A stretch of 47,104 nt of DNA from positions 1 to 47,104 of the forward strand of contig JBDRAM010000026.1 in the NCBI GenBank assembly GCA_043823785.1, given 5' to 3'. Of this stretch, positions 4,721-40,186 are shown one piece after another. How positions within the stretch are numbered: position 1 is the stretch's first letter; every line of letters begins with the position of its first letter. This stretch comes from Candidatus Omnitrophota bacterium (lineage in GTDB: Bacteria; Omnitrophota; Gorgyraeia; JABMRG01). A program made the translations under genes and the position numbers. The notes beneath the pieces are model-generated. The model searched no databases. It saw only the letters and a list, made by a program, of their open reading frames with translations, and had not been told where the DNA came from.

Positions 4721-4764
4721 AATAACTCCCTGGTACAATAATCAGGTATAAAAATATATTACAC

Positions 4765-4840
4765 CTGATTACAGTGATTATTTCAGATTACAGAGATTAA
4801 AACTTTAATCGCTGTAATCTTTTTTAATCTTGTTAATCAG
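4765..4840. repeat. inverted pair of degenerate 9-bp tandem arrays (GATTA-core arm / TAATC-core arm), no gene between
   Basis: ctgattacagtgattatttcagattacagagatta ... taatcgctgtaatcttttttaatcttgttaatcag. Confidence 0.65.
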
Positions 4841-4866
4841 ATGCCCCCTCTTTTTTTGTAGGGCAT

Positions 4867-6427: not shown

Positions 6428-6494
6428 TCGTCGTTCGTATGTCGTATTTCGTATGTCGAAAATTGCGACATGCGATATGCTATATACGATATAC
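6428..6494. repeat. inverted pair of 7-bp tandem arrays (CGTATGT type), no gene between
   Basis: tcgtatgtcgtatttcgtatgtcg ... cgacatgcgatatgctatatacgatatac. Confidence 0.8.
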
Positions 6495-6498
6495 AAAA

Positions 6499-7254
6499 TT
6501 AATACCTAACTCTCACAAGGCTCAGGCCTTTCGCAGGAGCTGTAGGCCCAGCCTGCGTCCTATCTTTAGCGCGCAGTATCCTTTTCATGCTTCCTGAGTG
6601 AAGCTTGCCCCTTCCTATCTCGATAAGCGTACCGACTATATTCCTGACCATATTATATAGAAAACCGTTTGCCTCAATATCTATATTTATGATAGGGCCG
6701 TCTTTTCTTATGGATATCCTTCTTATATTTCTTACAGACATCCTCTCTTTTTTGTCTGCTGCCTGAAAAGACTTAAAATCTTTCCTTCCTATCAGTATTC
6801 TTGCCTCACGCGTCATAAGCCTTACATCAAGCTTATAAGAAACGTGATATTGATAAAGCCTGTCAAAGGCCATAGAATAATCGCGGTTTAATATCTGATA
6901 GCGGTAGGTTTTAGAGCGGGCATCATACCTGGAGTTAAAATCAGGCTTTACTTCTTCAATATCTACAATAACTATATCTTTAGGCAAGAGCGCGTTAAGA
7001 GCTCTCTGCATAACAGCCATTGGCATCTTTGACTTTGTCTTAAAATTTGCCACCTGGCCCAAGGCATGCACGCCTGAGTCAGTCCTTCCTGCCCCGATAA
7101 TCCTTATCTCATCCTGCAGGATACCGCTTAAGACTCTTTCGATAACGCCCTGTATGGTCTTTTCAATGCCTATCTCATCAGGCTTTTTCTGCTGTATCTG
7201 CCAGCCTTTATAGTTTGTGCCGTCATATTCTATCGTTATCTTTATATTTCTCAT
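6499..7254 (-). CDS. truA: tRNA pseudouridine(38-40) synthase
   Basis: YDGTNYKGWQ, GAGRTDSGVHA, GFLYNMVRNIVG, AGPTAPAKGL. Confidence 0.97.
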   Translation of the reverse strand: MRNIKITIEYDGTNYKGWQIQQKKPDEIGIEKTIQGVIERVLSGILQDEIRIIGAGRTDSGVHALGQVANFKTKSKMPMAVMQRALNALLPKDIVIVDIEEVKPDFNSRYDARSKTYRYQILNRDYSMAFDRLYQYHVSYKLDVRLMTREARILIGRKDFKSFQAADKKERMSVRNIRRISIRKDGPIINIDIEANGFLYNMVRNIVGTLIEIGRGKLHSGSMKRILRAKDRTQAGPTAPAKGLSLVRVRY

Positions 7255-7662
7255 TATAGCATATGGCTTAGAGCACAGAGCTTAGAGTTTTGCCCTGAAA
7301 GCTCTTATCCTCTTGGTTAATATTTCAGACCTTTCATATAATCTTTTAAATCTAGATTCGGCCATTAAGTTCCTCTTTTTGCAAACTGCTAAAATAGATA
7401 CAACTTCATACATTGAACGACAAGAATAATTTAAAAAATTTCTAAATTCCTGTCTTGAATCACTACCCGAACCTTCTGCTATATTATTTGGCACCGACAA
7501 ACTAGCCGATCTAAGCTGGGATGCTATATTATATTGTAAATTTTTAGGTAATTCTTCAGCAAACTCGAGTAAATCTGTGCAAAAGTTTATCGCTTCATGC
7601 CAAATATCTAAGGATTCAAATCTATACATGGCAACCCTATGCTCTAGGCCCTATACTCTTAG
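7255..7662 (-). mobile_element. putative cassette: four-helix-bundle gene between inverted TAGAGCT-type 7-bp arrays
   Basis: Arms at 7255-7289 and 7633-7662 are reverse-complementary arrays; the unit fills the whole asd-truA junction. Confidence 0.6.
7282..7629 (-). CDS. four helix bundle protein (23S rRNA IVP / Avd-like superfamily)
   Basis: FESLDIW...SQLRSASLSVPNNIAEG...EFRNFL...S..E family signature. Confidence 0.92.
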   Translation of the reverse strand: MYRFESLDIWHEAINFCTDLLEFAEELPKNLQYNIASQLRSASLSVPNNIAEGSGSDSRQEFRNFLNYSCRSMYEVVSILAVCKKRNLMAESRFKRLYERSEILTKRIRAFRAKL

Positions 7663-8667
7663 CTATTCACTCTTCACTAACAACTCTGCTATCTGCACGG
7701 CATTTAAGGCCGCGCCCTTGCGCAGGTTGTCCGCTACTATCCATAGCCAGAAAGCATTTTTTACAAAAGGGTCCTTACGTATTCTGCCGACATAAACAGA
7801 GTCTTTTCCTTCGGCAAATACCGGTAAAGGATATCTTCCGTTACCGGGATCATCTATAACTTCCGCTCCGGGAGCTTTCTTCAAAAGTTCTCTTAATTTA
7901 TTAACAGATATTCCTTTCTTAGTTTCAATATATACTGCCTGTGAGTGCCCTGTTACCACAGGGACTCTGACACAGGTAGAGGTTATCTTTATTTTGCTGT
8001 CATGAAATATCTTATGAGTCTCTCTTACGGTCTTCCACTCCTCGCTGGTATAAGACTCATCCTGAAATCCACCGATATGAGGAAATACATTAAACGCTAT
8101 TCGCTGGGGCATGGCAGAAGCTGTTACCTCCTTTCCTTCAAGCAGGTCTTTCGTCTGCGCCTTAAGCTCATTTACCGCGCTGCGGCCGGCGCCTGATACT
8201 GCCTGATATGTAGCTGCCACTATGCGCTTTATGCCAAGCTTTTTATGAATGGGCCAGAGAGGTATAAGCATCTGTATAGTACAGCAGTTTGGATTTGCTA
8301 TTATGCCTTTGTGCTTTTTAGCATCCTTTGGGTTGATCTCAGGCACAACCAGAGGCACATCCTTCTCCATCCTGAAATCAGCGCCATTGTCAATCACGAC
8401 CGCGCCTTCTTTTATGGCTGCGGGTGAATAAGTAACAGCCGCGCCCTTCTCACCCTCTGTGCCGGCAAATAGAGCTATATCTATACCCCTGAAAGCCTGG
8501 GCATCTATCTTAAGCACATGGTATCTTATGCTGTCAACGTCTATATCTCTTTCGCTTCTCGCGAATACCTTAAGCTTATCTATAGGAAAATTACGCTGTT
8601 TTAATACGCGCAGCATCTCGATCCCTACCGCGCCAACACCAACCACCGCTACGTTATAACGTTTCAT
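7663..8667 (-). CDS. asd: aspartate-semialdehyde dehydrogenase
   Basis: VPEIN, IIANPNCCT, YQAVSGAG, CVRVPV, DNLRKGAALNAVQIAE; start MKRYN follows a GGAG RBS. Confidence 0.96.
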   Translation of the reverse strand: MKRYNVAVVGVGAVGIEMLRVLKQRNFPIDKLKVFARSERDIDVDSIRYHVLKIDAQAFRGIDIALFAGTEGEKGAAVTYSPAAIKEGAVVIDNGADFRMEKDVPLVVPEINPKDAKKHKGIIANPNCCTIQMLIPLWPIHKKLGIKRIVAATYQAVSGAGRSAVNELKAQTKDLLEGKEVTASAMPQRIAFNVFPHIGGFQDESYTSEEWKTVRETHKIFHDSKIKITSTCVRVPVVTGHSQAVYIETKKGISVNKLRELLKKAPGAEVIDDPGNGRYPLPVFAEGKDSVYVGRIRKDPFVKNAFWLWIVADNLRKGAALNAVQIAELLVKSE

Positions 8668-8690
8668 TGGTAAATACTCCTTTTGCATAA

Positions 8691-9827: not shown

Positions 9828-9962
9828 GGTCAGGTAGTAGGGTTAGGGTCAGGATGCCTGTTTAGTGTTTGGGTCAGGTAGTAGGTATGTTCTTGTATTT
9901 TCACCAACTACCTAACCTAACTACTATGCTGGCTTCCTGACCTTTACCTAACAACATGACCT
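9828..9962. repeat. inverted degenerate ~6-bp arrays (GGTCAG/GGTTAG versus CTAACC/CTGACC)
   Basis: ggtcaggtagtagggttagggtcagg ... ctacctaacctaactact ... cctgacctttacctaac. Confidence 0.6.
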
Positions 9963-10461: not shown

Positions 10462-10482
10462 CCTTTTCACTCTCTCACTCTC

Positions 10483-10543
10483 TAACCAGGTTAAAAATGG
10501 CACTTTTTAACCTGGTTAAAAACATGGGTTTTTAACCAGGTTA
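10483..10543. repeat. three alternating copies of the near-palindrome TAACC(A/T)GGTTA, 25-bp period
   Basis: taaccaggttaaaaa tggcac tttttaacctggttaaaaa catggg tttttaaccaggtta. Confidence 0.75.
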
Positions 10544-11803
10544 GATTTCGTCTGGGTGCGCAATCCGCCCCTTTATCGCGCTTGCCGCGGCTACCGCGGG
10601 GTTTGAAAGATATACAAAGGATTTTGGATGCCCCATCCTTCCTACAAAATTTCTGTTTGTAGTGGCTATCGCGACCTCACCTTCCGCCAATATGCCAGCG
10701 TGTCCGCCTAAACATGGGCCGCATGTGGGCGTTTCAACAGCAGCGCCCGCGTTTACAAATATTTCAAGAAGGCCCTCTTTTATCGCCTGAAGATATATCT
10801 TTTGGGTTGCGGGTATTACTATCATACGCACACGCGAATTTACCTTCTTCCCCTTTATGATCTTTGCGGCTATGCGCAGGTCAGATATTCTTCCGTTTGT
10901 GCATGAACCTATAACCGACTGGTCTATTGAGACATTTCTTAGCTTACTGACACCTTTTACATTACTCGGTAAGTGAGGGCAAGCAATCTGCGGCTCAATC
11001 TTTGATATATCCCATTCATAGACTTTTTTATACATCGCATCTTTATCCGATTTATAATATACAGTTCTTCTTTTACGAGCAACTAACCCCTCGTACCCCC
11101 TAGTAATAGCATCAGGTTCAATAATACCGTTTTTTCCGCCTGCCTCAATAGCCATATTGCACATCGCGAATCTATCATCCATGGGAAGTTTTTTTATCGC
11201 AGGGCCTTGAAACTCCATAGCCATATATAAAGCACCGTCAACGCCTATCTTTCCTATGGTAAAGAGCATCATATCTTTACCGCCGACCCACTTCCCTGCC
11301 TTTCCTTTATATATAAACTTAATAGATTCAGGCACCTTAAACCAGCAGCGGCCTGTTGCCATTACTGCCGCGAGGTCTGTCGAGCCAACTCCTGTTGAAA
11401 AAGCTCCTAAAGCACCATATGTGCAGGTATGAGAATCCGCGCCAATTATCAGATCCCCGGGCCCTACTAACCCTTGCTCAGGCAAAAGCGCATGCTCAAC
11501 GCCTACTCTACCTTGCTCAAAATAATGTTTAATATTATATTTTTTGGCAAAATTTGCCAAAACCATGCACTGCCTTGCACTCGCCGCGTCCTTATTAGGT
11601 GTAAAGTGGTCCGGCACAAGAGCAACCCTGTTTCTGTCCCATACTTTCTTTACGCCTGCTTTTTCCAATTCCCTTATAGAGATAGGAGCTGTAATATCAT
11701 TACCCAGGCAAAAATCTACCTTTGCGTTTATAAATTCACCCGGCGAAACTCTTCTTTTACCGCAGTGTCTGGCTAGTATTTTTTCTGTAATAGTCTGTTT
11801 CAT
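10541..11803 (-). CDS. leuC: 3-isopropylmalate dehydratase large subunit
   Basis: ADSHTCTYGALGAF, GSCTNGR, CGPCLG, TTNRNFVGRMG. Confidence 0.95.
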   Translation of the reverse strand: MKQTITEKILARHCGKRRVSPGEFINAKVDFCLGNDITAPISIRELEKAGVKKVWDRNRVALVPDHFTPNKDAASARQCMVLANFAKKYNIKHYFEQGRVGVEHALLPEQGLVGPGDLIIGADSHTCTYGALGAFSTGVGSTDLAAVMATGRCWFKVPESIKFIYKGKAGKWVGGKDMMLFTIGKIGVDGALYMAMEFQGPAIKKLPMDDRFAMCNMAIEAGGKNGIIEPDAITRGYEGLVARKRRTVYYKSDKDAMYKKVYEWDISKIEPQIACPHLPSNVKGVSKLRNVSIDQSVIGSCTNGRISDLRIAAKIIKGKKVNSRVRMIVIPATQKIYLQAIKEGLLEIFVNAGAAVETPTCGPCLGGHAGILAEGEVAIATTNRNFVGRMGHPKSFVYLSNPAVAAASAIKGRIAHPDEI

Positions 11804-11806
11804 ATT

Positions 11807-12233
11807 CGTATTGCGTATTGAGTATTGCGTATTGCGTGTTAAAGTTTTTTAATAAGGTTAAAAACCATCCTTGAAATATGGTCTATTCTTTCTAGTATTT
11901 CTTGCTCTTCAGATTCTTTTAAGTATAATAAATTTTTAGCAATTGTAGCTTGTGTTTCGAGTTCTGCGCAACTTCCTAATGAAATATATAAAAAATGCCT
12001 GTATTCCTTGTTATGACGTCTTCTAAAGCCTTCTGCAACATTAGATGGAACTGATACAGATGCTCTTCTCATTTGACTACTTAATCCGTATATTTCAGTA
12101 TTTGGAAATTGATTAGTTAGCATATAAATTCTACTAACCAACTCAATAGACTTTTTCCAGATATCTAAATCTCTATATGTCTTTATTTTTCCATTCATCT
12201 TTACGCAATACACACGACGCACGACGCAATACG
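11807..12233 (-). mobile_element. putative cassette: four-helix-bundle gene between inverted GTATTGC-type 7-bp arrays
   Basis: Left arm 11807-11839, right arm 12202-12233; the same arms occur without a gene at 16180-16245 and 21570-21642. Confidence 0.7.
11839..12198 (-). CDS. four helix bundle protein (23S rRNA IVP / Avd-like superfamily)
   Basis: TYRDLDIW...FPNTEIYGLSSQMRRASVSVPSNVAEG...SLGSCAELETQ; start MNGKIK. Confidence 0.95.
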   Translation of the reverse strand: MNGKIKTYRDLDIWKKSIELVSRIYMLTNQFPNTEIYGLSSQMRRASVSVPSNVAEGFRRRHNKEYRHFLYISLGSCAELETQATIAKNLLYLKESEEQEILERIDHISRMVFNLIKKL

Positions 12234-12243
12234 AATTTCAATT

Positions 12244-12702
12244 TCACAGCCTAAGCATCATGGCCTGTTCATCGCAATTCGGGAACTTATGGCACTTAAG
12301 GCACTCTGTCCATATCTTATGCGGAAGTTTCTTTCTCGAAATATTCTTAAAACCAAACTTCCTAAAAAACTTTGGTACATATGTAAGGCAGAATACCTTC
12401 TTTGCCTTAAGCGCTTTGGCTTCTTTGAGCGCGGCATTTACCAACTTTCTGCCTATGCCTTTCTTAGCTTCTTTCTCATCTACTGCCAATGCCTTTATCT
12501 CCGCTAAGTCTTCCCAGCATACATGCAATGCGCAGCAGCCAAGTATCTTACTCCCTTTTGAAACAATAAAATAGTCCCTTATATTCTCATAGATCTCAAT
12601 AAGGGAGCGGGATAGCATGGCATCCTTTTTTGCATACCCAGCTATCATGCTTTGTATCTTCTTAGCATCCTTTATGTCTGCTTTCCTTAAAACTATGTTC
12701 AT
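12244..12702 (-). CDS. GNAT acetyltransferase, short ArgA-like N-acetylglutamate synthase
   Basis: IYENIRDY, WEDLAEIKALAV, LPHKIWTECLKCHKFPNCDE. Confidence 0.85.
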   Translation of the reverse strand: MNIVLRKADIKDAKKIQSMIAGYAKKDAMLSRSLIEIYENIRDYFIVSKGSKILGCCALHVCWEDLAEIKALAVDEKEAKKGIGRKLVNAALKEAKALKAKKVFCLTYVPKFFRKFGFKNISRKKLPHKIWTECLKCHKFPNCDEQAMMLRL

Positions 12703-12728
12703 AGTATTCTCCTAATATATGAGTAAGT

Positions 12729-12757
12729 ATTATATAATATATGGTGAGAGTTTGCAA
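12729..12757 (-). promoter_or_regulatory. sigma70 promoter TTGCAA-17-TATAAT for the argA-leu-asd-truA operon
   Basis: -35 at 12752-12757, -10 at 12729-12734. Confidence 0.55.
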
Positions 12758-12787
12758 GAAAATTGCTTTAGGTAACATCAGATATGG

Positions 12788-13432
12788 TTATAGTTTGATT
12801 ACGCGGTCGGAGATGAGTTTTATGACGGCGGGGTCGTGAGAGATGAATAACAGGGCAAGGTTCTCCTCTTTTTTAAGTTTCGAGAGAAGCTTTAAGATGC
12901 GAGCCTGAATGGGCAGGTCTAAAGACGATAAAGGCTCATCGCATATAAGAAGCTTTGGCTCTACTGAAAGAGCGCGCGCGATATTCACGCGCTGTCTTTC
13001 GCCTCCGGATAACTGATGCGGATATTTATCCAGGATGTCGGGCTTTAACTCAACTTTCTTCAGCAGCTCTTTTACTTTTTGCGGCATCTTTTTTCTGGTA
13101 GCCTTCTTGTGTATTATAAGCGGCTCACTCAAAATATCCTTTATACGCATCTTGGGATTTAGGCTCGCGAATGGATCCTGAAATACTATCTGGACCTTTT
13201 GCCTGAATTTTTTGAGAGTACTTCTCTTAAGCTTAAATATATCTTCACCACGATATAGTACTTTCCCCTCTGTGGGCTTTATTAAGCGCGCTACTATCTT
13301 TGCCAAAGTCGTTTTTCCGCAGCCGGATCTGCCGACAATGCCGACAGACTCACCATAGTCTATTTTTAGGCTTACGCTATCAAGGGCCTTTACGTCGTTA
13401 AAGTATTTTGTTACTTTTATGAGTTCTATCAT
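12788..13432 (-). CDS. peptide/nickel ABC transporter ATPase (OppF/DppF-like, short)
   Basis: GRSGCGKTT, VFQDP, LSGGERQR, CDEP. Confidence 0.92.
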   Translation of the reverse strand: MIELIKVTKYFNDVKALDSVSLKIDYGESVGIVGRSGCGKTTLAKIVARLIKPTEGKVLYRGEDIFKLKRSTLKKFRQKVQIVFQDPFASLNPKMRIKDILSEPLIIHKKATRKKMPQKVKELLKKVELKPDILDKYPHQLSGGERQRVNIARALSVEPKLLICDEPLSSLDLPIQARILKLLSKLKKEENLALLFISHDPAVIKLISDRVIKL

Positions 13433-13435
13433 AGT

Positions 13436-13461
13436 TTCGCCGCCAGGAGGCGGCTCCTACG
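13436..13461 (-). repeat. GTAG-type REP-like element
   Basis: cGTAGGAGCCGCCTCCTGGCGGCGAA; identical 26-bp copy at 31577-31602. Confidence 0.7.
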
Positions 13462-13474
13462 TTTAGCTATCCAC

Positions 13475-13508
13475 AATAGTAGGGCACGTTTAAACGTGCC
13501 CTACTATT
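13475..13508. repeat. perfect 34-bp palindrome, GTAGGG...CCCTAC REP-like
   Basis: aatagtagggcacgttt|aaacgtgccctactatt. Confidence 0.75.
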
Positions 13509-13510
13509 AG

Positions 13511-14305
13511 TTAAAGCTTTAGTCTCTCGGGCATAGAGTCGAGCAGCATCTGCGTATAAGCATGCTTGGGCTTTTCAAACAGTTTCGCTGTCTCTTCTAC
13601 CTCTACAATTTTACCATTGTACATAACTGCGGCTCTGTCTGCAAATCGCCTTACCAGACGTATGTCGTGAGTAATTATTAATATTGACAGAGACATCTCC
13701 TCGCGCAAGTCTGAAAGCAGTTGTAAAATCTCTGATTCTGTATCTACATCAAGCGCGGTTGTAGGTTCATCCGCTATAAGAAGTTTTGGCCTTGTGGATA
13801 TTGCCATAGCTATCATAGCGCGCTGTTTCATTCCGCCTGATAGCTGGTGTGGATATGACTTAAATACACGTTCGGGGTTATCCAGCCTTGCCTCTTTTAA
13901 AGAAGCCATGGCTTTAATCTTTGCTTCTTCTCTTGTCCTTACTATCCTGTGCACCAACAGCGCCTCCTTTATCTGTTCACCGATACTAAATACAGGATTT
14001 AGTGACGTTGCCGGTTCCTGAAATATATATGAGATACTCTTTCCGCGAATATCACGTAATTCATCCGCGGAAATTCTAAGAATATTTTTTCCTTCAAAAA
14101 CAACTGACCCTGATACAACCCTTCCATCTTTTGGGCCTATTAAGTTTGTAATAGAAAGCCCGAGTGTAGATTTGCCGCATCCTGACTCACCCACGAGCGC
14201 GAATATGCATCCCTTTGGTATCTTAAGGCGCACGCCATCAACAGCCTTTGTCTCTTTTTGATCCTTAAAATAGGATGTCTTTAGGTCGTTTATCTGTAAT
14301 ATCAT
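13511..14305 (-). CDS. peptide ABC transporter ATPase (OppD/DppD-like)
   Basis: GESGCGKS, YPHQLSGGMKQR, ADEPTTALDV. Confidence 0.93.
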   Translation of the reverse strand: MILQINDLKTSYFKDQKETKAVDGVRLKIPKGCIFALVGESGCGKSTLGLSITNLIGPKDGRVVSGSVVFEGKNILRISADELRDIRGKSISYIFQEPATSLNPVFSIGEQIKEALLVHRIVRTREEAKIKAMASLKEARLDNPERVFKSYPHQLSGGMKQRAMIAMAISTRPKLLIADEPTTALDVDTESEILQLLSDLREEMSLSILIITHDIRLVRRFADRAAVMYNGKIVEVEETAKLFEKPKHAYTQMLLDSMPERLKL

Positions 14306-14307
14306 AA

Positions 14308-15120
14308 TTACTTGTGTGGGCTAAAATATTCTCTTAAGCCCTCTCCTAACAGGTTATAACCTAAAACAGTTATGAATATCGCAAGCCCGGGAAATAACAT
14401 GAGCCACCAGCATACACCAAGAGATGATTTTCCTTCCATAAGAATATTTCCCCAACTTGGCGTCGGGGGTTGGACACCTAAACCCAAAAAGCTTAAAGCA
14501 GATTCTACCAATATCGCTGCCGCTATTCCTAAAACCGCGCTTACTAAAACAGGCGCTATAGCATTTGGTATAAGATGAAATACTATTATCCTAAAATCAC
14601 TCGCGCCTAAAGCGCGGGCTGCCAGAATAAATTCACGTTCTTTTAAGCTTAATATTTGAGCTCTTATAAGACGCGCTACCCCCATCCAGCTTGTTATTCC
14701 GATGACTATCATAATGTTCATAATATTCGGCTCCAATATCGCGACTACCGCAAGCATCAGAAAAAATGACGGGAAGCATAACATGATATCTACAAATCTC
14801 ATGAGAACCGCGTCTGCCTTTCCTCCGTAGTAGCCGGCAACAGAACCTATTATCATACCAATAAGCACTGATACCCCAACCGCTACAAAACCGATCGATA
14901 AAGATATTCTTGAGGCATAGACCATTCTGCTGAATACATCCCTGCCAAGATAATCTGTACCAAGGATATGTCGGCTTGAAGGCGCAAGCAGGGCTGATGG
15001 AATATCAACCTCTCCAGGATCATATGGCGCAATAAGAGGCGCGAATATCGCCGACAGAGCCAATATGCCAACCACTGTTGCGCCAAAAAGTGTGAGTTTA
15101 TTTTTTAGTAATTCTTTCAT
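14308..15120 (-). CDS. peptide ABC transporter permease (OppC/DppC-like)
   Basis: HILGTDYLGRD, EAA loop, ESALSFLGLGVQPPTPSWG. Confidence 0.94.
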   Translation of the reverse strand: MKELLKNKLTLFGATVVGILALSAIFAPLIAPYDPGEVDIPSALLAPSSRHILGTDYLGRDVFSRMVYASRISLSIGFVAVGVSVLIGMIIGSVAGYYGGKADAVLMRFVDIMLCFPSFFLMLAVVAILEPNIMNIMIVIGITSWMGVARLIRAQILSLKEREFILAARALGASDFRIIVFHLIPNAIAPVLVSAVLGIAAAILVESALSFLGLGVQPPTPSWGNILMEGKSSLGVCWWLMLFPGLAIFITVLGYNLLGEGLREYFSPHK

Positions 15121-15159
15121 GGTTTAGTGGGCTTTTTATTTTTCCCTTTTTACTTCCTG

Positions 15160-15191
15160 CCCCGTACCCGAGCGAAGCGAGTGGTTCGGGG
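15160..15191. repeat. short hairpin element CCCCGTACC...GGTTCGGGG with a GAGCGAAGCGA loop
   Basis: Imperfect inverted repeat; ends resemble the IR at 37766-37867. Confidence 0.5.
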
Positions 15192-15192
15192 T

Positions 15193-16170
15193 TTACTTAT
15201 CCCCATACCTTATCCTCGGATCCGCGAATGAGTATGATATGTCTGCCAAGATGTTACCTATCAACGTTAAGAACGCGCCTATGATTAATGCGGCCATTAT
15301 TACAGGATAATCCCTTCCCATTACTGATTCAAAAAAAAGTCTCCCCATTCCAGGTATGCCAAAAACAGACTCAAATATCACGCTTCCGCCTATAAGTCCT
15401 GGTATAGATAAACCAAGTATGGTTATTATAGGCAAAATAGCATTCTTAAGCGCGTGTTTATATATTACTGTTGATTCGGGTAACCCCTTAGCCCTTGCTG
15501 TCCTCACGTAGTCCTTATGAAGCACCTCAAGCATACTGCTTCGCATATAACGGCTCATGCCTGCTAATCCTCCGAAAGCAGATACAAATATTGGAAGTAA
15601 AAGGTGTTTGGCTATATCGAAAAATTTGCCCGCGCTTGATAGATTATCAAAATCTAAGGATGCTATTCCCTGCACCGGCAGCCAGCCCAGCCTTATTCCA
15701 AAAAAAGATATCAGCATAAGCCCCAGCCAGAAACCTGGCATCGCAAAACCCGTAAAGACAAATGCGGCCATGAAGCGATCATAGAAAGAGCCCTGCCTTA
15801 CAGCACTTGATACCCCTATGGGAATAGCTATCAGTAAGATAAGAAATATGGATAATATATTTATAAGAATGGTTATGGGGATTCTTTCCGCTATTTTTTC
15901 TTTTACTTTTCGGCCATCTCGGTATGAACTACCAAAATCGAGCATAATAATGCGCCTTACCCATCGCCAATATTGTATATAGAGAGGTTTATCAAGGTCA
16001 AACTGTTTTATGAGTTTTTCCCTGGCCTCAAATGATACCTTTACATTAAGACTCGTTTCTGCATCTACAGGAGTCCCTGGCGCAAGATGTATAACCGCAA
16101 ACGAGATAATCGAAATCCCAATAAGCATCGGAATAATAGATATTAGGCGTCTTATAATATAGTTTTTCAT
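15193..16170 (-). CDS. peptide ABC transporter permease (OppB/DppB-like)
   Basis: YIIRRL...[11 protein letters not shown]...KHALKNA...DPRIR; start moved to MKNYII because the longer start lies in a repeat array. Confidence 0.94.
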
Positions 16171-16179
16171 AATACTGTC

Positions 16180-16255
16180 CGTATTGCGTATTGAGTATTG
16201 CGTATTGCGTGTAGTCGCGATACGCAATACGCACGACGCACGACGAGGCCTACGC
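16180..16255. repeat. inverted GTATTGC-type arrays, no gene between
   Basis: The 33-bp left arm is identical to 11807-11839. Confidence 0.85.
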
Positions 16256-17895
16256 TAATCCTTATACTTCTGCTGATTTTCCGGGACGTACCAGTCGATA
16301 AAGTTATAGCCGATGCCGGCGGGCGCTGGCTCTATGCCCTTAAACCTCTTGTGCACTATTGGCAAAGCATCCGCTACCCATAAAAACATATAGGGCTGCT
16401 CATCATATAGTATCTGGTGCGCCCTGTAATATATTCGGGCACGCTTATCCTGATCGAATGTGCGCCTGCCCTCATCAAGCAGTGCGTCAACTTCTTTGTT
16501 CTTATAGCTGATAAAATTAAATTCTCCCTCTCTTGTTTTTGATGAGTGCCAGATATCATAGCAATCCGGATCACGCGAAAGGCCCCAGCCAAGCAGTACA
16601 GCCTCAAATCTCTTCTTATTTACAAATTCCGTTAAAAAGACACTCCACTCAACTATCTTTATCTTTACATTTACACCTATATTTGTGAGTCTATGCTGTA
16701 TTATCTCAGCCGCAAGCTTTCGCTGATCATTGCCTTGATTTGTAAGTATAGTAAATGCGAAAACCCTGCCGTCTTTATCAAGCCATCCATCACCATCTGT
16801 ATCACTGTAACCTGCTTCATAAAGCAGCTCTTTAGCTTTCTCGGGATCAAATGGGTTGGGGCTTACATCTTTATTGTAAGCCCATGACTCCGGGACAAAA
16901 GGCCCTGTGCATATTCTGCCTAAACCCATTAAAACACCATCGATAAGCTCCTGTTTATCAACAGCCATGTTTAGGGCCTGTCTTACTCTTTTATCCTTGA
17001 ATCTATCATCAAGCAGGTTGTAACCGAGATAAGAATAACCGAATGCCGGATAGCGAAATTTATTATAATGAGCCTTAAAGAAATCTTTATCGGTCTGCCT
17101 ACGATATTGCAGAGGCGTCAAACCCATCATGTCTATACCTTCTGCCTGAAGTTCAAGAAACGTGGTCGCTGTATCAGGGATTATGCGGTAGATATATCTG
17201 TCAAAAAATGGACGGCCTTCGAAATAGTCATCATTAGCAGTTAGATCTATACGCTGAGCGCTATTCCATCTTAAAAACTTATACGGGCCTGTGCCTATAG
17301 GGTTACGGCTGTATTTTGTAGCACTTAGATCTTCATCCTTTAGTATATGTTTCGGGATAATCCACATACCCCAGGATGAGAGCGCGGGTGAAAAAGGTTC
17401 CTTGTATGTGACCTTTATGGTGTATGGATCTAAGACTTCAAAGGATTCTATTTTTAAGAAATCGCCGCTGTAAGGAGTCCTTACTTTAGGGTCGATCAGT
17501 TTCTCATAAGTAAACAACACATCTTCTGCTGTAAATGCTTCTCCGTCATGCCACCTTACATTCTGCTTAAGATGAAATATTATAACCTGGCCGCCTTCTT
17601 TTATCTCCCAGCTTTTGGCAAGCTCTCCTACTATATTTAAATTCTTATCATATTTGATTAATCCATTGTAGACTAATCCGCATATATCATGCGAAGCAGA
17701 GTCTGATGCTACGATAGGTATCAAGGTGGTGGCATCACCAATAGAACTTACAACTATAGAATCGCCATATGCAGGTTTTCCTTCTTCATCATAATCAACA
17801 GAAGGCATGCGGCTGCCGCATCCATAAAGGCCGGTGAAAATAAAAAAGACCGCTGAAATTATCAGCGGCCTTATATAAGGTTTTTTAAGACTCAT
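16255..17895 (-). CDS. peptide ABC transporter substrate-binding lipoprotein (family 5)
   Basis: Lipobox LYGC; WHDGEAFTAEDV; PIGTGPYKF. Confidence 0.94.
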   Translation of the reverse strand: MSLKKPYIRPLIISAVFFIFTGLYGCGSRMPSVDYDEEGKPAYGDSIVVSSIGDATTLIPIVASDSASHDICGLVYNGLIKYDKNLNIVGELAKSWEIKEGGQVIIFHLKQNVRWHDGEAFTAEDVLFTYEKLIDPKVRTPYSGDFLKIESFEVLDPYTIKVTYKEPFSPALSSWGMWIIPKHILKDEDLSATKYSRNPIGTGPYKFLRWNSAQRIDLTANDDYFEGRPFFDRYIYRIIPDTATTFLELQAEGIDMMGLTPLQYRRQTDKDFFKAHYNKFRYPAFGYSYLGYNLLDDRFKDKRVRQALNMAVDKQELIDGVLMGLGRICTGPFVPESWAYNKDVSPNPFDPEKAKELLYEAGYSDTDGDGWLDKDGRVFAFTILTNQGNDQRKLAAEIIQHRLTNIGVNVKIKIVEWSVFLTEFVNKKRFEAVLLGWGLSRDPDCYDIWHSSKTREGEFNFISYKNKEVDALLDEGRRTFDQDKRARIYYRAHQILYDEQPYMFLWVADALPIVHKRFKGIEPAPAGIGYNFIDWYVPENQQKYKD

Positions 17896-17946
17896 CTTTT
17901 ACAGAAGCATTAGACACTTTATCTTGGATAAGCGTCTGACAGCTTT

Positions 17947-18429
17947 CTATTCCTCTGTTTGCGCAGGCATTACCGTTTCAGAAGATACCATATCCTCGAC
18001 TGCCTTGATATCGCCTTCTGTAACAGGGAGGGTCTCTTCCCTTGTGACTGTTTCTTCCCCTGTTATGGGGTCTATCTCGACATGCTTAACCGTAGTCTTT
18101 GCTGCCCGCTTAACATCATCAGCCATGTCGGTAACCGCGGCTGGAAGTCCGGCTCCGGGAGGCATTATAATATTTGCGCCCTCCATAAGAGACTTCTGCC
18201 TTCTGCTTGATAATACAGCGAGAGACAACGATGTGCACAAAAAAAGCACCGCGCTTACAGTCGTGGCTTTAGTAAGAAAAGCAGATGCCTTCTGGCCGAA
18301 TATCGTAGTTTGCGAACCACCGCCGCCAAAGGTATCAGCTAGGCCTCCGCCTTTTCCTGCCTGAAGGAGGATTACCGCAACCATGATAAGTGAAACAATT
18401 ATATGCACTATTAGAATAAATATATACAT
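17947..18429 (-). CDS. secG: preprotein translocase subunit SecG with extended acidic C-tail
   Basis: ILLQAGKGGGLADTFGGG...FLTKAT; follows tpiA. Confidence 0.92.
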   Translation of the reverse strand: MYIFILIVHIIVSLIMVAVILLQAGKGGGLADTFGGGGSQTTIFGQKASAFLTKATTVSAVLFLCTSLSLAVLSSRRQKSLMEGANIIMPPGAGLPAAVTDMADDVKRAAKTTVKHVEIDPITGEETVTREETLPVTEGDIKAVEDMVSSETVMPAQTEE

Positions 18430-18433
18430 CTTA

Positions 18434-19192
18434 CTATCGCACTGCTCCTTTCACTATATGACTGAATAAGTCTATCTTCAAGCTTGCACCACCCACCAGA
18501 GCTCCGTCTACATCCTCTTCAGCCATAATCTCTTTTACATTTTCCGGTTTAACGCTTCCGCCGTATTGTATTCTTACGCCAGCCGCTATCTCTTCGCCAA
18601 AAAGTTTGGCAACTAATTCTCTTATATACTTGTGGACTTCTTCTGCCTGCTTGGGCGTTGCGGTTTTGCCTGTTCCAATAGCCCAGACAGGTTCATAAGC
18701 TATTATTGTCTTCTTAATGTCTTCACTGCTTAAGCCTGACAACGAACCTTCCACATGATTTTTTACAACATCAAAGGTCTTTCCAGCTTCTCGCTCTTCC
18801 AGCTGTTCACCCACACAAACTATAGGCAAAAGGCCTGCGGCTAAAACTGCTTTTAATTTCTTATTTACAGTCTCATTTGTCTCATAGAAATATATTCTTC
18901 TCTCTGAATGGCCTATGATCACATAGCTGCAGCCGGTATCTTTGAGCATCTGTGAAGAGACCTCACCCGTAAAAGCGCCCTTTTCTTCCCAGTAGACATC
19001 CTGCGCCCCAAGCTTTATATTAGAGCCTACGAGGAGTTCATTAACATCAGATAAAGCCGTATACGTAGGGCATACAACAATATCAACTTCGGTTATGCTT
19101 GAAAGCTCTCTCTTCAAACCATTAACGAGCCCTACAGCCTCTTTAATAGTATTATGCATCTTCCAGTTACCGGCGATTATAGGTTTTCTCAT
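18434..19192 (-). CDS. tpiA: triosephosphate isomerase
   Basis: AGNWKM, IGHSERR, AYEPVWAIGTG, YGGSV, LVGGASL. Confidence 0.98.
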   Translation of the reverse strand: MRKPIIAGNWKMHNTIKEAVGLVNGLKRELSSITEVDIVVCPTYTALSDVNELLVGSNIKLGAQDVYWEEKGAFTGEVSSQMLKDTGCSYVIIGHSERRIYFYETNETVNKKLKAVLAAGLLPIVCVGEQLEEREAGKTFDVVKNHVEGSLSGLSSEDIKKTIIAYEPVWAIGTGKTATPKQAEEVHKYIRELVAKLFGEEIAAGVRIQYGGSVKPENVKEIMAEEDVDGALVGGASLKIDLFSHIVKGAVR

Positions 19193-19218
19193 TTTATTCC
19201 TTCTAATTCTTGTGCCTT

Positions 19219-19287
19219 GTATATCGTATGTCGCATTTCGTATATCGCGAAAACCGATATGCGATATGCTATATACGACATGCGAAA
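19219..19287. repeat. inverted CGTATGT/CGTATAT 7-bp arrays, no gene between
   Basis: Shares 20 identical bp (19259-19278) with 6470-6489. Confidence 0.8.
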
Positions 19288-19304
19288 CAGCTCTATTCCG
19301 TCTT

Positions 19305-20504
19305 TTAAACGCTGGCGGACTCTTTATCTGCCAATGCTGCTATGCCAGGCAGTATCTTTCCCTCAAGATACTCTAAGGACGCTCCTCCGCCTGTTGAGAT
19401 ATGAGACATCTTATCCGCAACACCGAATTTTGCTACCGCGGCAGCTGTATCACCGCCGCCGATAACAGAAGTAGCGGTTGATTCCGCGACAGCTTCGGCC
19501 AATGCCCTTGTCCCGGCAGCAAATTTATCATTTTCAAAAATACCAACCGGCCCATTCCATACGATCATCCTGGCCTCGGATATCTTTTTAGAAAATAGCT
19601 TTACGCTCTTTGGGCCTATGTCAACCCCCATCCATCCTGATTCTATAGATTCTGCCTCGGTAGTCTTTACATTTACAGAAGACTCTATATTATCAGTGAC
19701 TATATGGTCTATCGGCAAAACTATATCAACGCCTTTCAACTTTGCCTTATCAAGAATAGTCTTTGCTGTTTCAAACATCTCATTTTCCACGCGGGAGGAT
19801 CCAACATCCACTCCCTTGACCTTCATAAAGGTATAGGCCATTGCGCCGCCTATAAGAATAGAGCTGGCTTTTTCCATCATATTCTCAATAACAGGTATCT
19901 TATCAGCAACCTTCGCGCCGCCCAATATGAATATAAACGGCTTATCGGAGCTTGTGAGCACTTTTTCAAAATACTCTATCTCCTTCTCAACCAGGAATCC
20001 TGAAACAGATTCAAGGTATTTTGTTACACCTTCGGTTGAGGCGTGCGCCCTGTGGCATGTTCCAAAAGCATCATTTATGAAAATATCCGCTAAAGACGCG
20101 AGCTTCTTGGCAAATTCAGGATCGTTTTTTGTCTCCTGCTTATAGAACCTCAGGTTCTCAAGCATTATGATATCACCGTCAGCCATAGAGGAGGCCGCTT
20201 CCTTTACCTCATCACCAAGGCAGTCTTTAAGCATCTTAACGGGCTTACGTAGAAGTTCGCTAAGCCGCGCAGCTGTGGGCTTGAGAGAAAATTCAGGCTT
20301 GATCTCTCCTTTTGGCCTTCCCAGATGGCTCATAAGAATAAGCTTAGCGCCGTTCTCAACTATATATTTAATTGTTGGTAAAGCTGCCCTTATCCTGTTG
20401 TCATCTGTAATATTCTGCTCTTTATCAAGCGGGACATTAAAATCTACCCGCATTAGAACACGCTTACCAGCTATATCAACATCCTTAACGGATTTTTTAT
20501 TCAT
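19305..20504 (-). CDS. pgk: phosphoglycerate kinase
   Basis: RVDFNVP, SHLGRP, NDAFGTCHRAH, ISTGGGASLE. Confidence 0.98.
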   Translation of the reverse strand: MNKKSVKDVDIAGKRVLMRVDFNVPLDKEQNITDDNRIRAALPTIKYIVENGAKLILMSHLGRPKGEIKPEFSLKPTAARLSELLRKPVKMLKDCLGDEVKEAASSMADGDIIMLENLRFYKQETKNDPEFAKKLASLADIFINDAFGTCHRAHASTEGVTKYLESVSGFLVEKEIEYFEKVLTSSDKPFIFILGGAKVADKIPVIENMMEKASSILIGGAMAYTFMKVKGVDVGSSRVENEMFETAKTILDKAKLKGVDIVLPIDHIVTDNIESSVNVKTTEAESIESGWMGVDIGPKSVKLFSKKISEARMIVWNGPVGIFENDKFAAGTRALAEAVAESTATSVIGGGDTAAAVAKFGVADKMSHISTGGGASLEYLEGKILPGIAALADKESASV

Positions 20505-20523
20505 ACTTGCAGGCTCCGGACTA

Positions 20524-21543
20524 TTAGCAGGTAACTGCTGCCTTTGTCATATATTTAATAAGATCTATGACTCTGCAGCTGTAACCCCATTCGTTGTCAT
20601 ACCAGGAAAGGATCTTTACCATATCACCTATGCAGAATGTCTGCTCAGCATCCACTATCGAAGAAAGAGGATTCTTCTTAAAATCTATAGATACCAACGG
20701 CTCCTGGCTTACGCCAAGTATATTCTTCAGCTTGCCGGACGCTGAATCAATAAGGACCTTATTTATCTCATCCTTGGTGACTTCCCTTCCAACCTGCATT
20801 ACCACATCCACTATAGAGACTGTGGGTGTTGGAACGCGGATCGAAAGGCCGTCTATTTTTCCCTTTAGCTCAGGTATTACAATGCCAACCGCTTTGGCAG
20901 CGCCTGTTGTAGTAGGTATCATAGATAGCGCTGCTGCGCGTGCCCTGCGAAGATCATTGTGAGGAAGGTCCAATATGCGCTGATCATTTGTGTATGAGTG
21001 TATTGTTGTCATAAGGCCCTTCTTTACTCCAAAGGCATCCTTTATTACCTTTACTATCGGCGCTATGCAGTTAGTTGTGCATGAGGCATTCGACACAATA
21101 TTATCCTTTGCTGGATCGTATTTATCCTCATTCACGCCGAGCACAAAAGTGGGTACTCCGCTGCCCTTTGCAGGCGCGGATATTATAACTTTCTTAGCCC
21201 CTGCTTTTATATGAGCGCCTGTTTTTTCTGCGTCACGAAATATGCCTGTCGACTCCACTACGATTTCAACTCCAAGATCACCCCATGGAAGTTTTGAAGG
21301 GTCTTTCTCGGAAAAAACATTCAGCTTTTTGCCGTCAATCACTATAAAATTACCTTCCACTTTTATATCATTGGGAAGAATTCCAAAATTTGAGTCATAT
21401 TTCAAAAGATGCGCGAGAGTAGGCGCATCAGTAATATCGTTTACACCCACTATCTCTATATCCTTAGCTCCCCGCTCTAATGCTGAGCGAAAAACTAAAC
21501 GTCCAATTCTGCCAAATCCGTTAATACCAACTTTTACCGACAT
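20524..21543 (-). CDS. gap: glyceraldehyde-3-phosphate dehydrogenase
   Basis: [29 protein letters not shown]. Confidence 0.98.
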
Positions 21544-21569
21544 CCTTACTCCTCCTTGTTCTTATAGTC

Positions 21570-21642
21570 CGTATTGAGTATTGAGTATTGAGTATTGAGT
21601 TGAAAGTTTTTTTCGCAATACGCACGACGCACTACGCAATAC
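21570..21642. repeat. inverted GTATTGA/GCAATAC arrays with a 12-bp spacer resembling the 3' end of the four-helix-bundle gene
   Basis: Right arm is 27/29 identical to 12204-12232; spacer tgaaagtttttt versus ttaaagtttttt at 11839. Confidence 0.8.
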
Positions 21643-22652
21643 TATACGTTAATTTTGGGTTCTCTTAAATATCTACTGGCGGTCTCAGGCGGTGTAGGAT
21701 TAATATAGAATCCTGTCCCCCACTCAAAGCCTGCGATCTTACTAAGCTTCGGCATAATCTCTACATGCCAATGGTAGTACTCACTTTCATCACCATTGCC
21801 GTTGAGAGGGGTGGTATGTATGATAAAATTATAAGGCGGGTCCTTCAGAGCAACCTTCATCCTCATGAGTATCTCTTTGAGTATCTTTGCAAAATTATTT
21901 ATTTCTGATTCTGTAATATCCGTAAAATAGGCTGCATGCTTTCTCGGCACTATTGATACCTCAAAAGGTGAGCGCGAAGCAAACGGGCAGAATGCTATAA
22001 AATCATCATTCTCCAATATCTCCCTGTGCCTGTATTCCAACTCCTGTCTTACGATATCGCAAAAAACGCAGCGTTCTTTATAATCGTAATAGCGATGAGC
22101 GCACTCCATCTCTTCCATAACGCGCCTTGGCACTACTGGTAAAGATATAAGCTGTGTGTGGCTATGCTCCAAAGAGGCGCCTGCAGCTAGGCCATAATTT
22201 TTAAAGATCAATACATACTTAAACCTATCGTCCTTCGCAAGCTCCAGGCTTCTTCTCTTATATACTCTAATAACCTTCTTTATCTGCTCAATATCAAGGT
22301 CAGCAAGCTGCTCATCATGCTTGACACCTTCTACAATTACCTCGTGCTCGCCTACCCCGTTCATCATATCGAACATCCCGACGCCTGTGCGATTGAGGTC
22401 TGGTTCGTTCTTTAACGCAGGAAACTTATTAGGAACTGTTCTTGTCTCCCAGCCCGGCGTATCAGCAGCAGTGCCATCCGGACGGTCTGCATCAACTTCA
22501 GGCGGAGTCAGCTTTTCACTACCAATGCAGAAAGGACATGTTCCACCCATAAGAACCGGACTTTCTATAATGTAGCCGTCGGGCCCAAGATTCTTTTCAC
22601 TGCTTATAATGACCCAGCGTGCGGTCATAGGATCAAGTCTTAATTCACCCAT
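21642..22652 (-). CDS. galT: GalT-like hexose-1-phosphate nucleotidyltransferase (HIT superfamily)
   Basis: CPFC, NKFPAL, GASLEHSHTQL (intact HxHxQ), HWHVEIMP, AGFEWGTG. Confidence 0.85.
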   Translation of the reverse strand: MGELRLDPMTARWVIISSEKNLGPDGYIIESPVLMGGTCPFCIGSEKLTPPEVDADRPDGTAADTPGWETRTVPNKFPALKNEPDLNRTGVGMFDMMNGVGEHEVIVEGVKHDEQLADLDIEQIKKVIRVYKRRSLELAKDDRFKYVLIFKNYGLAAGASLEHSHTQLISLPVVPRRVMEEMECAHRYYDYKERCVFCDIVRQELEYRHREILENDDFIAFCPFASRSPFEVSIVPRKHAAYFTDITESEINNFAKILKEILMRMKVALKDPPYNFIIHTTPLNGNGDESEYYHWHVEIMPKLSKIAGFEWGTGFYINPTPPETASRYLREPKINV

Positions 22653-22658
22653 TGTTTT

Positions 22659-22690
22659 CGTCCTGCGTCCTGCGTCCTGCGTATTGCGTA
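22659..22690. repeat. solo 7-bp array (CGTCCTG x3 plus CGTATTG)
   Basis: cgtcctgcgtcctgcgtcctgcgtattgcgta. Confidence 0.7.
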
Positions 22691-23748: not shown

Positions 23749-23872
23749 AGTTTAGTTCACAGTTAATAGTTTACAGTTCACAGTTAATAGTTGATAGTTT
23801 CAGCCGCATGCTCCGTAGGCGCATCTGCCTGCGGCAGAGGCTGACCAGCCTTTGGCTGGTATAGTTTATAGT
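23749..23872. repeat. solo 7-bp array (A(T/C)AGTTN) interrupted by GC-rich hairpins
   Basis: agtttagttcacagttaatagtttacagttcacagttaatagttgatagttt...ccagcctttggctgg atagtttatagtt. Confidence 0.6.
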
Positions 23873-39945: not shown

Positions 39946-39967
39946 CGCAAACCTCGTACTTTATGAT

Positions 39968-40186
39968 GTTACGTAGGTTACGGAGGTTACGGAGGTTACG
40001 AAAGTTACATTTTTCAAAAAGGTACTCCGTAACATTCGTAACATTCGTAACATTCGTAACATTCGTAACATTCGTAACATTTGTAACATTTGTAACATTC
40101 GTAACATTCGTAACATTCGTAACATTCGTAACCTCCGTAACCTCCGTAACATTCGTAACATTTGTAACATTTATAACATTTATAAC
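39968..40186. repeat. inverted 9-bp tandem arrays: 5x GTTACGGAG-type versus 18x GTAACATTC-type
   Basis: Units counted directly; spacer about 20 bp. Confidence 0.9.

Follow-up and report, generated by a model that had tools for sequence, protein, structure and literature searches.

Gene-bearing and gene-less copies of a heptamer-armed PF05635 element at operon junctions of an Omnitrophota genome

Three operon junctions with heptamer arms

We analyzed a 47,104-nucleotide (nt) contig of a Candidatus Omnitrophota bacterium (JBDRAM010000026.1 of assembly GCA_043823785.1; the whole contig is called the window below) and found three junctions between operon genes that carry copies of one element built of tandem GTATTGC/GCAATAC heptamers. 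One copy encloses a gene of the Pfam family PF05635 and two are gene-less hairpins. The window is contig C26 of an assembly (G000) of 1.9 Mb in 139 contigs, with 42% G+C and 86.8% completeness, and related genomes (G001–G040) served for comparison. All three sites lie inside co-directional strings of minus-strand genes, with an aconitase-family gene, a GNAT acetyltransferase gene, oppB-like and oppA-like genes, tpiA, pgk, gap, and two galT-like genes as neighbors.

The gene-bearing copy separates the GNAT gene (12244–12702) from the aconitase-family gene (10541–11803). On the minus strand, its 5′ arm (12203–12233; CGTATTG CGTCGTG CGTCGTG TGTATTG CGT) begins 10 nt past the GNAT stop, and its 3′ arm (11807–11838; ACA CGCAATA CGCAATA CTCAATA CGCAATA CG) stops 3 nt short of the aconitase-family ATG. 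The open reading frame (ORF) enclosed by them (11839–12222, minus strand) matches the Pfam model 23S_rRNA_IVP (PF05635) with an E value of 2.6e-39 and 134 bits against a cut-off of 33.8, so the "four-helix gene" of the original prediction, which had been made from the letters of the contig, is real. Translation likely starts at the ATG at 12198, giving a four-helix-bundle protein of 119 amino acids (aa) encoded at 11839–12198 with the stop codon TAA at 11839–11841; no Shine–Dalgarno-like sequence was seen ahead of this ATG. The nearest solved chain is 2gsc_A (E 1.8e-26), residues N53, E56, G57, and E79 of the protein are invariant across 26 relatives, and its C terminus, KKL, is conserved. A match to the bAvd model is weak (E 6.3e-06, 27.1 bits, under the cut-off of 40). 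Taken as 11799–11837 and 12203–12241, the arms are 79% complementary and 365 nt apart, and the flank duplex has a z score of –8.3.

The junction of the oppA-like (16255–17895) and oppB-like (ATG at 16170) genes holds a gene-less hairpin at 16180–16245 on the minus strand. It consists of a 5′ arm (16216–16245), a spacer at about 16213–16215 plus a partial unit, and a 3′ arm (16180–16212); the arms are 80% complementary with 6 nt between them, and the RNA fold of –33.3 kcal/mol (z –3.0) was equaled in stability by none of 200 shuffles. The third site, at 21571–21644 on the minus strand between a galT-like gene (21642–22652) and gap (ATG at 21543), is a gene-less hairpin with a stub: the 3′ arm (21571–21600) is made up entirely of CTCAATA units, four in number, and is followed by the stub (21601–21612) and the 5′ arm (21613–21642). 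The TAG stop of the galT-like ORF (21642–21644) falls inside the first arm unit, and relatives stop at a TAA just before the arm. At another locus, L065 of relative G009, a GNAT ORF reads through a small heptamer hairpin and its stop overlaps the next start.

The arm alignments of the original prediction were reproduced exactly: 11807–11839 equals 16180–16212 at 33 of 33 positions, the GTATTGA variant unit included, 12202–12226 matches 16221–16245 at 24 of 25, and 12204–12232 matches 21614–21642 at 27 of 29. Identity between the sites ends at the arm edges, and the seven outside bases differ. The reported match of the spacer at 21601–21612 (TGAAAGTTTTTT) to the gene end at 11839–11850 (TTAAAGTTTTTT) stood at 11 of 12 positions, with the correction that TAA, the stop codon on the minus strand, takes up 11839–11841, and the codons for K K L, the final three, occupy 11842–11850. 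The claim that the sites are copies of one element and not independent microsatellites also held, the exact unit order being present at five genome sites and, as a 27-mer, in 41 metagenome contigs. An assembly artefact is ruled out, since independent assemblies contain the design and even the exact arm as well.

Copy family, gene-end stubs and orthologous junctions

Tandem arrays of at least three units were dominated by period 7 across the genome, with 95 arrays against 1–15 for periods 5, 6, 8–10, and 12 and none for period 11; a looser threshold gave 173 period-7 arrays, which group into few unit families. Within the window, a degenerate three-unit GTATTGC pattern matched eight times where shuffles predicted 0.01, and Tandem Repeats Finder reported many further period-7 arrays. 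The GTATTGC/GCAATAC family has 23 loci genome-wide: the single gene-bearing copy, 17 two-armed gene-less copies, and 5 with a single arm, in each case the 3′ arm. Such single-arm arrays are common and lay outside the model of the original prediction. Read in the direction of the cargo gene, the element is laid out as a 5′ arm in which CGTCGTG and CGTATTG units are mixed, a spacer, and a 3′ arm that typically reads CGCAATA CGCAATA CTCAATA CGCAATA CG. An identical 30-nt 3′ arm with CTCAATA as its third unit is found at nine loci, and an exact 31-mer of the arm at five places in the assembly, while the spacers of the 17 two-armed gene-less copies are 3–21 nt long and all different. The flanking ORFs show 16 copies running in the same direction as their neighbors and 6 antisense to them, with 1 unclear; the distance from the end of the 3′ arm to a start codon is 3–30 nt in most of the co-oriented copies. 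Flanking sequence of the element is rich in T to its left and in A to its right.

The gene-bearing copy has its final codons and the stop (AAAAAACTTTAA) directly adjoining the 3′ arm, and the same CTTTAA/arm junction is found in gene-bearing copies with the same arm in relative G004 (locus L003) and in a Sedimentisphaerales metagenome-assembled genome (L074). Similar letters precede the 3′ arm at gene-less sites, namely AAAAAAACTTTCAA at 21601 in the window, AAAAACTTTTGAA on contig C61, GCTTTAA on C105, ACTTTAA on C107, and ATTTAA on C62. When the 14 nt before the 3′ arm at 22 gene-less sites were compared with the gene end, the score was 132 against 106 ± 4.5 in composition-preserving shuffles, and none of 2,000 shuffles reached it. 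This agrees with the expectation that spacers at empty sites resemble the gene end and supports the view that gene-less copies carry remnants of the 3′ end of the gene. As the stub bases encode the conserved KKL terminus, the direction from gene-bearing to gene-less is favored; for each single site we infer it.

Empty sites had been proposed to arise either by loss of the cargo or as derivatives resembling miniature inverted-repeat transposable elements (MITEs). The gene-end remnants favor loss of the gene. The 17 differing spacers fit better, though not decisively, with repeated, independent deletion in place than with a MITE-like burst of one amplified deleted master.

Counts of same-family heptamer neighbors within 6 kb exceeded those under genome-wide label shuffling, both for individual arrays (28 vs. 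14.7; 1 of 5,000 shuffles) and with cassette arms merged (24 vs. 13.5; 4 of 3,000), the merged counts of 24 having wrongly joined 11807 and 16180. Under within-contig shuffling, the 24 neighbors compare with 21.7 (694 of 3,000), and local hopping is not claimed.

The junctions themselves vary between genera. A PF05635 gene between galT and gap is present in none of eight syntenic relatives, four of which have a short uninterrupted junction and three a longer spacer without heptamers; in the remaining one, G003, the junction holds a gene-less hairpin of CGGTTTT/CGTAAAC units. Between oppA and oppB, such a gene is likewise absent from all eight informative relatives. The stop and start overlap in four of these (ATGA or GTGA); the junction is filled in G005 by a hairpin of GGTTTTA/CCGAACA units. 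G009 has a single CGCAATA-type array there, and G003 (L054) and G004 (L057) a different palindromic repeat (CATTGCGAG ... CTCGCAATG, with GAGATTGCTTCG inside), beside which G004 retains GCAATACGCAATACG, a remnant of a CGCAATA arm. The full gene that the original prediction had proposed to look for at these two junctions was thus not found in the relatives compared.

The GNAT/aconitase junction, informative in 12 relatives, is uninterrupted in 5 and has other spacers in 4; of the remaining 3, one holds another cassette and two hold hairpins made of other heptamer units. The cassette, in G003, is another PF05635 gene with CGGTTAG/CGTAAAC arms, and the hairpins, in G009 and G016, are gene-less and belong to two further unit families. 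The flanking housekeeping proteins are 70–83% identical within the family, and the G003 cassette protein is 58% identical to that of the window, whose closest relatives are the proteins of L074 (68%) and L003 (67%), both GTATTGC-armed. Because the window protein is nearer to these two than to that of G003, the two cassettes at this junction are not closest kin, which points to a putative independent insertion or replacement at a favored site.

Presence/absence variation at the three junctions was seen between genera and not within a species. Contigs assembled from three DNA read runs (Logan; low depth of about 2–6) bridge none of the sites, and the joints found in them, such as 11838 to 21609 with four letters between, represent other family copies with other spacers and not alleles. 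A metagenome scan with the 5′ end of oppB for strain variants of the junction gave no matches.

Arms of PF05635 genes across genomes and the origin of the copies

The association of PF05635 genes with inverted arrays extends well beyond the window. All six PF05635 genes of this genome are bounded by inverted short tandem-repeat arrays whose unit differs between genes, clearly so for five and more weakly for C2:8165. PF05635 genes are present in 27 of the 41 related genomes and GTATTGM arrays in 11 of the 41, patchily across the families of the class. We examined 40 PF05635 genes of relatives with their flanks, which together with the 6 of this genome makes 46. In nearly all of the 40, inverted tandem-repeat arms with gene-specific units lie at both the start codon and the stop codon, the period being mostly 7 and sometimes 6, 8, or 9; the arms usually comprise three to five units, with some expanded to 17–18.

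To quantify the pairing of the flanks, we compared the 60 nt upstream with the 60 nt downstream of each gene and applied a threshold of z below –3. This was passed by 31 of the 46 genes, and several of the misses carry arms further out as judged by eye. We also scanned other phyla, using one genome per species and an alignment of eight proteins, and obtained at least 603 loci. We kept 80 of them, 79 being usable, and 40 of the 79 passed the threshold. The kept loci come from Planctomycetota, Nitrospirota, Bacteroidota, Acidobacteriota, Patescibacteria, Desulfobacterota, Firmicutes, and others. Among 150 random ORFs of at least 200 aa from this genome, taken as a control, only one passed.

The arms of resident genes also match the arrays scattered around the same genome. 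Recurrence was counted with 14-mers in 500-bp bins, 12-mers giving too much background: arm 14-mers of each of the six resident genes occur in 6–41 other bins of this genome, against 0–9 bins for 38 foreign genes, and two foreign GTATTGC-armed genes reach 19 bins each. Reciprocally, arrays of CGTAAAC, the unit of the CGGTTAG/CGTAAAC arms of the G003 cassette, have 105 matches in G003, none in G000, and 3–8 in three other relatives, while GTATTGM arrays have 34 matches in G000 and 3 in G003. Proteins more than 60% identical share more arm 6-mers than distant ones (0.08–0.09 vs. 0.025; Spearman rho 0.13, p 4e-5).

These data leave little room for independent microsatellites, formed by replication slippage in AT-rich spacers, alike by convergence and with a gene that merely happens to lie between two of them. 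Among the longer simple repeats of many bacteria, heptamers are the most frequent, according to the available text of one study (PMC4679880), and the numbers of units do vary, up to the expanded arms mentioned above. Against this, the order CGCAATA CGCAATA CTCAATA CGCAATA is exact at five to nine sites here and in the 41 metagenome contigs, which comes near to a refutation; the arms stand in complementary pairs, at PF05635 genes far more often than at control ORFs; and gene-end remnants are present. We regard such an origin as highly improbable.

We consider it probable, with substantial room for doubt, that the three sites belong to one family of hairpin cassettes of the intervening sequence (IVS) type that occupy operon junctions, and that the gene-less copies derive from gene-bearing ones by gene loss. 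The full form would be an insert of about 430 bp, a PF05635 gene between inverted arrays of tandem heptamers, placed between two operon genes, after the stop of the first and before the start of the second. Its co-orientation with the host genes would allow transcription from the host promoter, and pairing of the arms in the RNA would keep the host stop and start near each other. The gene would then be lost by deletion, probably promoted by the inverted arms, with the arms and a few gene-end bases kept. Under this explanation, the RNA hairpin is expected to form in the cell and may make the insert tolerable at translationally coupled junctions, and the PF05635 protein may be needed for the spread or upkeep of the arms.

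A number of observations weigh against this explanation. Filled and empty alleles of one site were seen in no same-species genome and in no bridging read, the reads being represented by low-depth contigs. No target-site duplication was seen by eye at the edges of the 23 loci, and 6 of the 22 oriented copies are antisense to their neighbors. The fold of the galT/gap hairpin is weak (–18.8 kcal/mol, z –2.0), 5 of 200 shuffles being equally stable. The stub is equally readable as the innermost part of the stem, as TAAAG after the 5′ arm pairs with CTTTA before the 3′ arm, and the differing spacers could also stem from faster change of the loop or from homogenization of the arms between loci. No transposase, integrase, or reverse transcriptase tied to the element was found, RVT_1 having no match in the 87%-complete assembly. 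RNase III (PF14622, PF00636, TIGR02191) was not detected in the same 87%-complete assembly, nor PF00636 in any of 15 same-order relatives of 79–97% completeness, which means not found and is not proof of absence. The exact 27-mer of the arm occurs in 41 metagenome contigs, 35 of them distinct by their downstream flank, and none of the 41 has a PF05635 gene next to it; most of these copies are single arrays, nine being parsed as two-armed and about six of those convincing by eye. As most metagenome copies are single and none has the gene, arrays can exist, and perhaps spread, without a hairpin or a gene. Protein and arm are also loosely linked: the proteins of L074 and L075 are 79% identical and yet have CGCAATA-type and CGACATA-type arms, respectively, the L074 arm being a mix of CGCAATA and CGACATA units, and CCGAAAAC-type arms are found on proteins only about 50% identical. 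The comparison argues against a strict base-by-base recognition of the arm by the protein.

The search for mobility functions bears on a further explanation, in which REPIN-like hairpins are moved by a Y1 transposase (IS200/IS605, RAYT-type) encoded elsewhere and the PF05635 gene is a passenger in the loop. The genome has four ORFs with a Y1_Tnp domain (best E 1.2e-14), and short intergenic palindromes in many copies are reminiscent of doublets of repetitive extragenic palindromes (REPs). RAYT genes are typically flanked by their own REPs; here, a heptamer array lies within 1.2 kb of just one of the four Y1_Tnp ORFs, and none is flanked on both sides. The tight association across phyla is with PF05635 genes, and at least six unit families and six PF05635 genes stand against four Y1 ORFs. 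We therefore hold movement by a Y1 transposase to be improbable. The PF05635 cassettes share with MITEs and REPINs the combination of one gene-bearing form with many short palindromic gene-less copies that have the same ends, lie between genes, and vary in presence between genomes. They differ in their cargo, which is not a known transposase, in their heptamer arms, in the lack of any observed target-site duplication, and in their 17 internal junctions, all of them different; the REPIN–RAYT arrangement would further call for a Y1_Tnp ORF with arrays on both sides, which was not seen here.

No transposase domain was found in the cargo, and the PF05635 protein is the only cargo seen. Among pairs of inverted arrays examined for other cargo, those on contigs C45, C122, and C133 proved not to be cassette-like: within the C45 pair lies an ORF of 156 aa whose CX5R motif may be a phosphatase or ArsC-type signature, and the C122 and C133 pairs enclose long ordinary ORFs. 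Among relatives, PF00636 was found in 7 of 41, and the presence of RNase III shows no clear relation by eye to the numbers of PF05635 genes. Genomes of the class are rich in long transcribed inverted repeats although RNase III is scarcely detected in them.

Known systems and further repeats of the window

PF05635 is a very large family for which, to our knowledge, no function has been established, and we know of no explanation for the rRNA intervening sequences since 1990. IVSs without an ORF also exist in rRNA. Among the ORF-bearing ones, the IVS in helix 45 of the Coxiella burnetii 23S rRNA carries, as far as described in the available text of PMC4990558, an S23p ORF in the loop of a 28-bp stem formed by terminal inverted repeats, and its ATG is preceded by GACAGAT heptamers, three to four in tandem; the stem is cleaved by RNase III, and a former role of the ORF in mobility is raised there as an idea. 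The same text cites further ORF-bearing IVSs in Leptospira, Brucella, and Xanthomonas (PMC4990558). The element studied here shares with these a loop containing a PF05635 ORF that runs in the sense of the host transcript, inverted repeats that give a long stem, heptamers before the start, and a poor or absent Shine–Dalgarno sequence. It differs from the rRNA IVSs, which lie in helix 9, 25, or 45 of the 23S rRNA, in that all three sites are mRNA operon junctions between protein-coding genes, that a genome has many copies and several unit families, with gene-less and single-arm forms outnumbering the gene-bearing one, and that searches of this assembly and of same-order relatives did not detect the excising RNase III. 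The assembly yielded no 23S rRNA gene.

The classification that suits the element best is that of an IVS-type hairpin cassette residing at operon junctions. The window then offers a possible life cycle outside rRNA, with a gene-bearing cassette, gene-less hairpins that keep last codons, and single arms, and the sister genera show that these tightly coupled junctions have been struck repeatedly by different heptamer families. This would link three separate oddities, the IVS proteins, the abundant heptamer repeats, and the paired "regulator sites" of other bacteria. In the literature searched, which covered few subscription journals and excluded supplements, no paper connects heptamer arms and gene-less copies with PF05635 genes located outside rRNA. 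A further relation is to Avd of diversity-generating retroelements, which belongs to a related four-helix-bundle fold family; the bAvd score of the cargo stays under its cut-off, RVT_1 has no match in the genome, and no pair of template and variable repeats was seen.

Heptanucleotide arrays are known in cyanobacteria as short tandemly repeated repetitive (STRR) sequences. In marine Beggiatoaceae, TAACTGA arrays are located just upstream of start codons (PMC4679880, in its available text). The single arrays of our genome resemble those of both groups in being tandem, 7 nt in period, intergenic, mostly co-oriented, a few nucleotides before a start, and patchy across phyla, and may be of the same kind; as far as the available descriptions go, the others differ in being direct repeats without an inverted partner or an associated gene. 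Geobacter metallireducens, in turn, has paired tandem arrays of hepta-, octa-, and nona-nucleotides in its spacers that have been called "global regulator binding sites" (PMC2700814, in part). Like ours, these are pairs of arrays on opposite strands in tens of copies, intergenic and also inside operons such as proB–proA; they differ in being described as protein-binding, and the available part of that paper mentions neither a link to PF05635 nor a gene-bearing form.

The Geobacter interpretation is one of several points in favor of reading the arrays as RNA or DNA operators of ring-forming PF05635 proteins, which would control themselves and a regulon at operon junctions and whose sites would spread by selection for regulation. 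Arrays are placed directly before start codons, mostly in co-orientation (16 of 22 copies here; among the 35 distinct metagenome loci, 21 have a co-oriented ORF that begins no more than 60 nt downstream), as are the TAACTGA repeats of Beggiatoaceae. The exact order of units is kept in unrelated contexts, single arrays included, each resident gene has a matching resident array family, and the usual three to five units per arm can be set beside the homopentamers reported for relatives of the protein (Lin 2006, as cited in the available text of PMC4990558). The pattern at the junctions is nevertheless insertion-like, with housekeeping junctions uninterrupted in some sister genera and occupied by other families in others. 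The coupling of protein and arm is loose, arrays can grow to 17–18 units, and G027 has GTATTGA arrays and no PF05635 gene in a 94%-complete assembly. On balance, we judge the operator reading unlikely.

A further speculation, which we consider doubtful, is a self-propagating module of protein and binding site. One 7-nt unit would be bound per subunit and four to five units per ring of PF05635 proteins, gene-less and single arrays before start codons would respond in trans to the resident protein, and the rRNA IVSs, the heptamers of cyanobacteria and Beggiatoa, and the Geobacter "regulator sites" would be faces of one system. If true, the module would give the genome as a whole a post-transcriptional layer acting at operon junctions, and this in a lineage without detected RNase III.

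The window contains further repeats. A second PF05635 cassette lies at 7255–7670 on the minus strand (gene 7282–7629), between minus-strand ORFs at 6499–7254 and 7663–8688; its arms consist of CTCTAAG/CTCTGTG and CTAGAGC/CATAGGG units, and its flank duplex has a z score of –5.1. Gene-less hairpins of a TCGTATG/GCGATAT family are found at 6435–6492 and 19219–19285, the latter between pgk and tpiA, and share their unit family with the arms of the PF05635 gene on contig C22. Unpaired single heptamer arrays occur at 22659–22689, 23753–23799, and 43485–43513. The first of these has units related to the GTATTGC/GCAATAC family (minus strand CGCAATA, three times CGCAGGA, and CG), has no complementary arm, and finishes 6 nt ahead of the ATG of the first galT-like gene; the second finishes 0–5 nt ahead of the second tandem galT-like gene's start codon.

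A hairpin with 9-nt units is present at 39965–40180, one arm having about four units (GTTACGGAG) and the other being expanded to 17 (CGTAACATT; Tandem Repeats Finder score 243). Long imperfect palindromes of short units are located at 9828–9961, 4762–4843, and 10481–10545, with arms of 59, 40, and 32 nt, respectively, and the GGTCAGG/TAGTAGG-like units of the first resemble the flanks of the PF05635 gene on contig C2. Finally, a pair of 22-nt inverted repeats at 70–519, with 406 nt between them, surrounds small Cys-containing ORFs of 55–78 aa.

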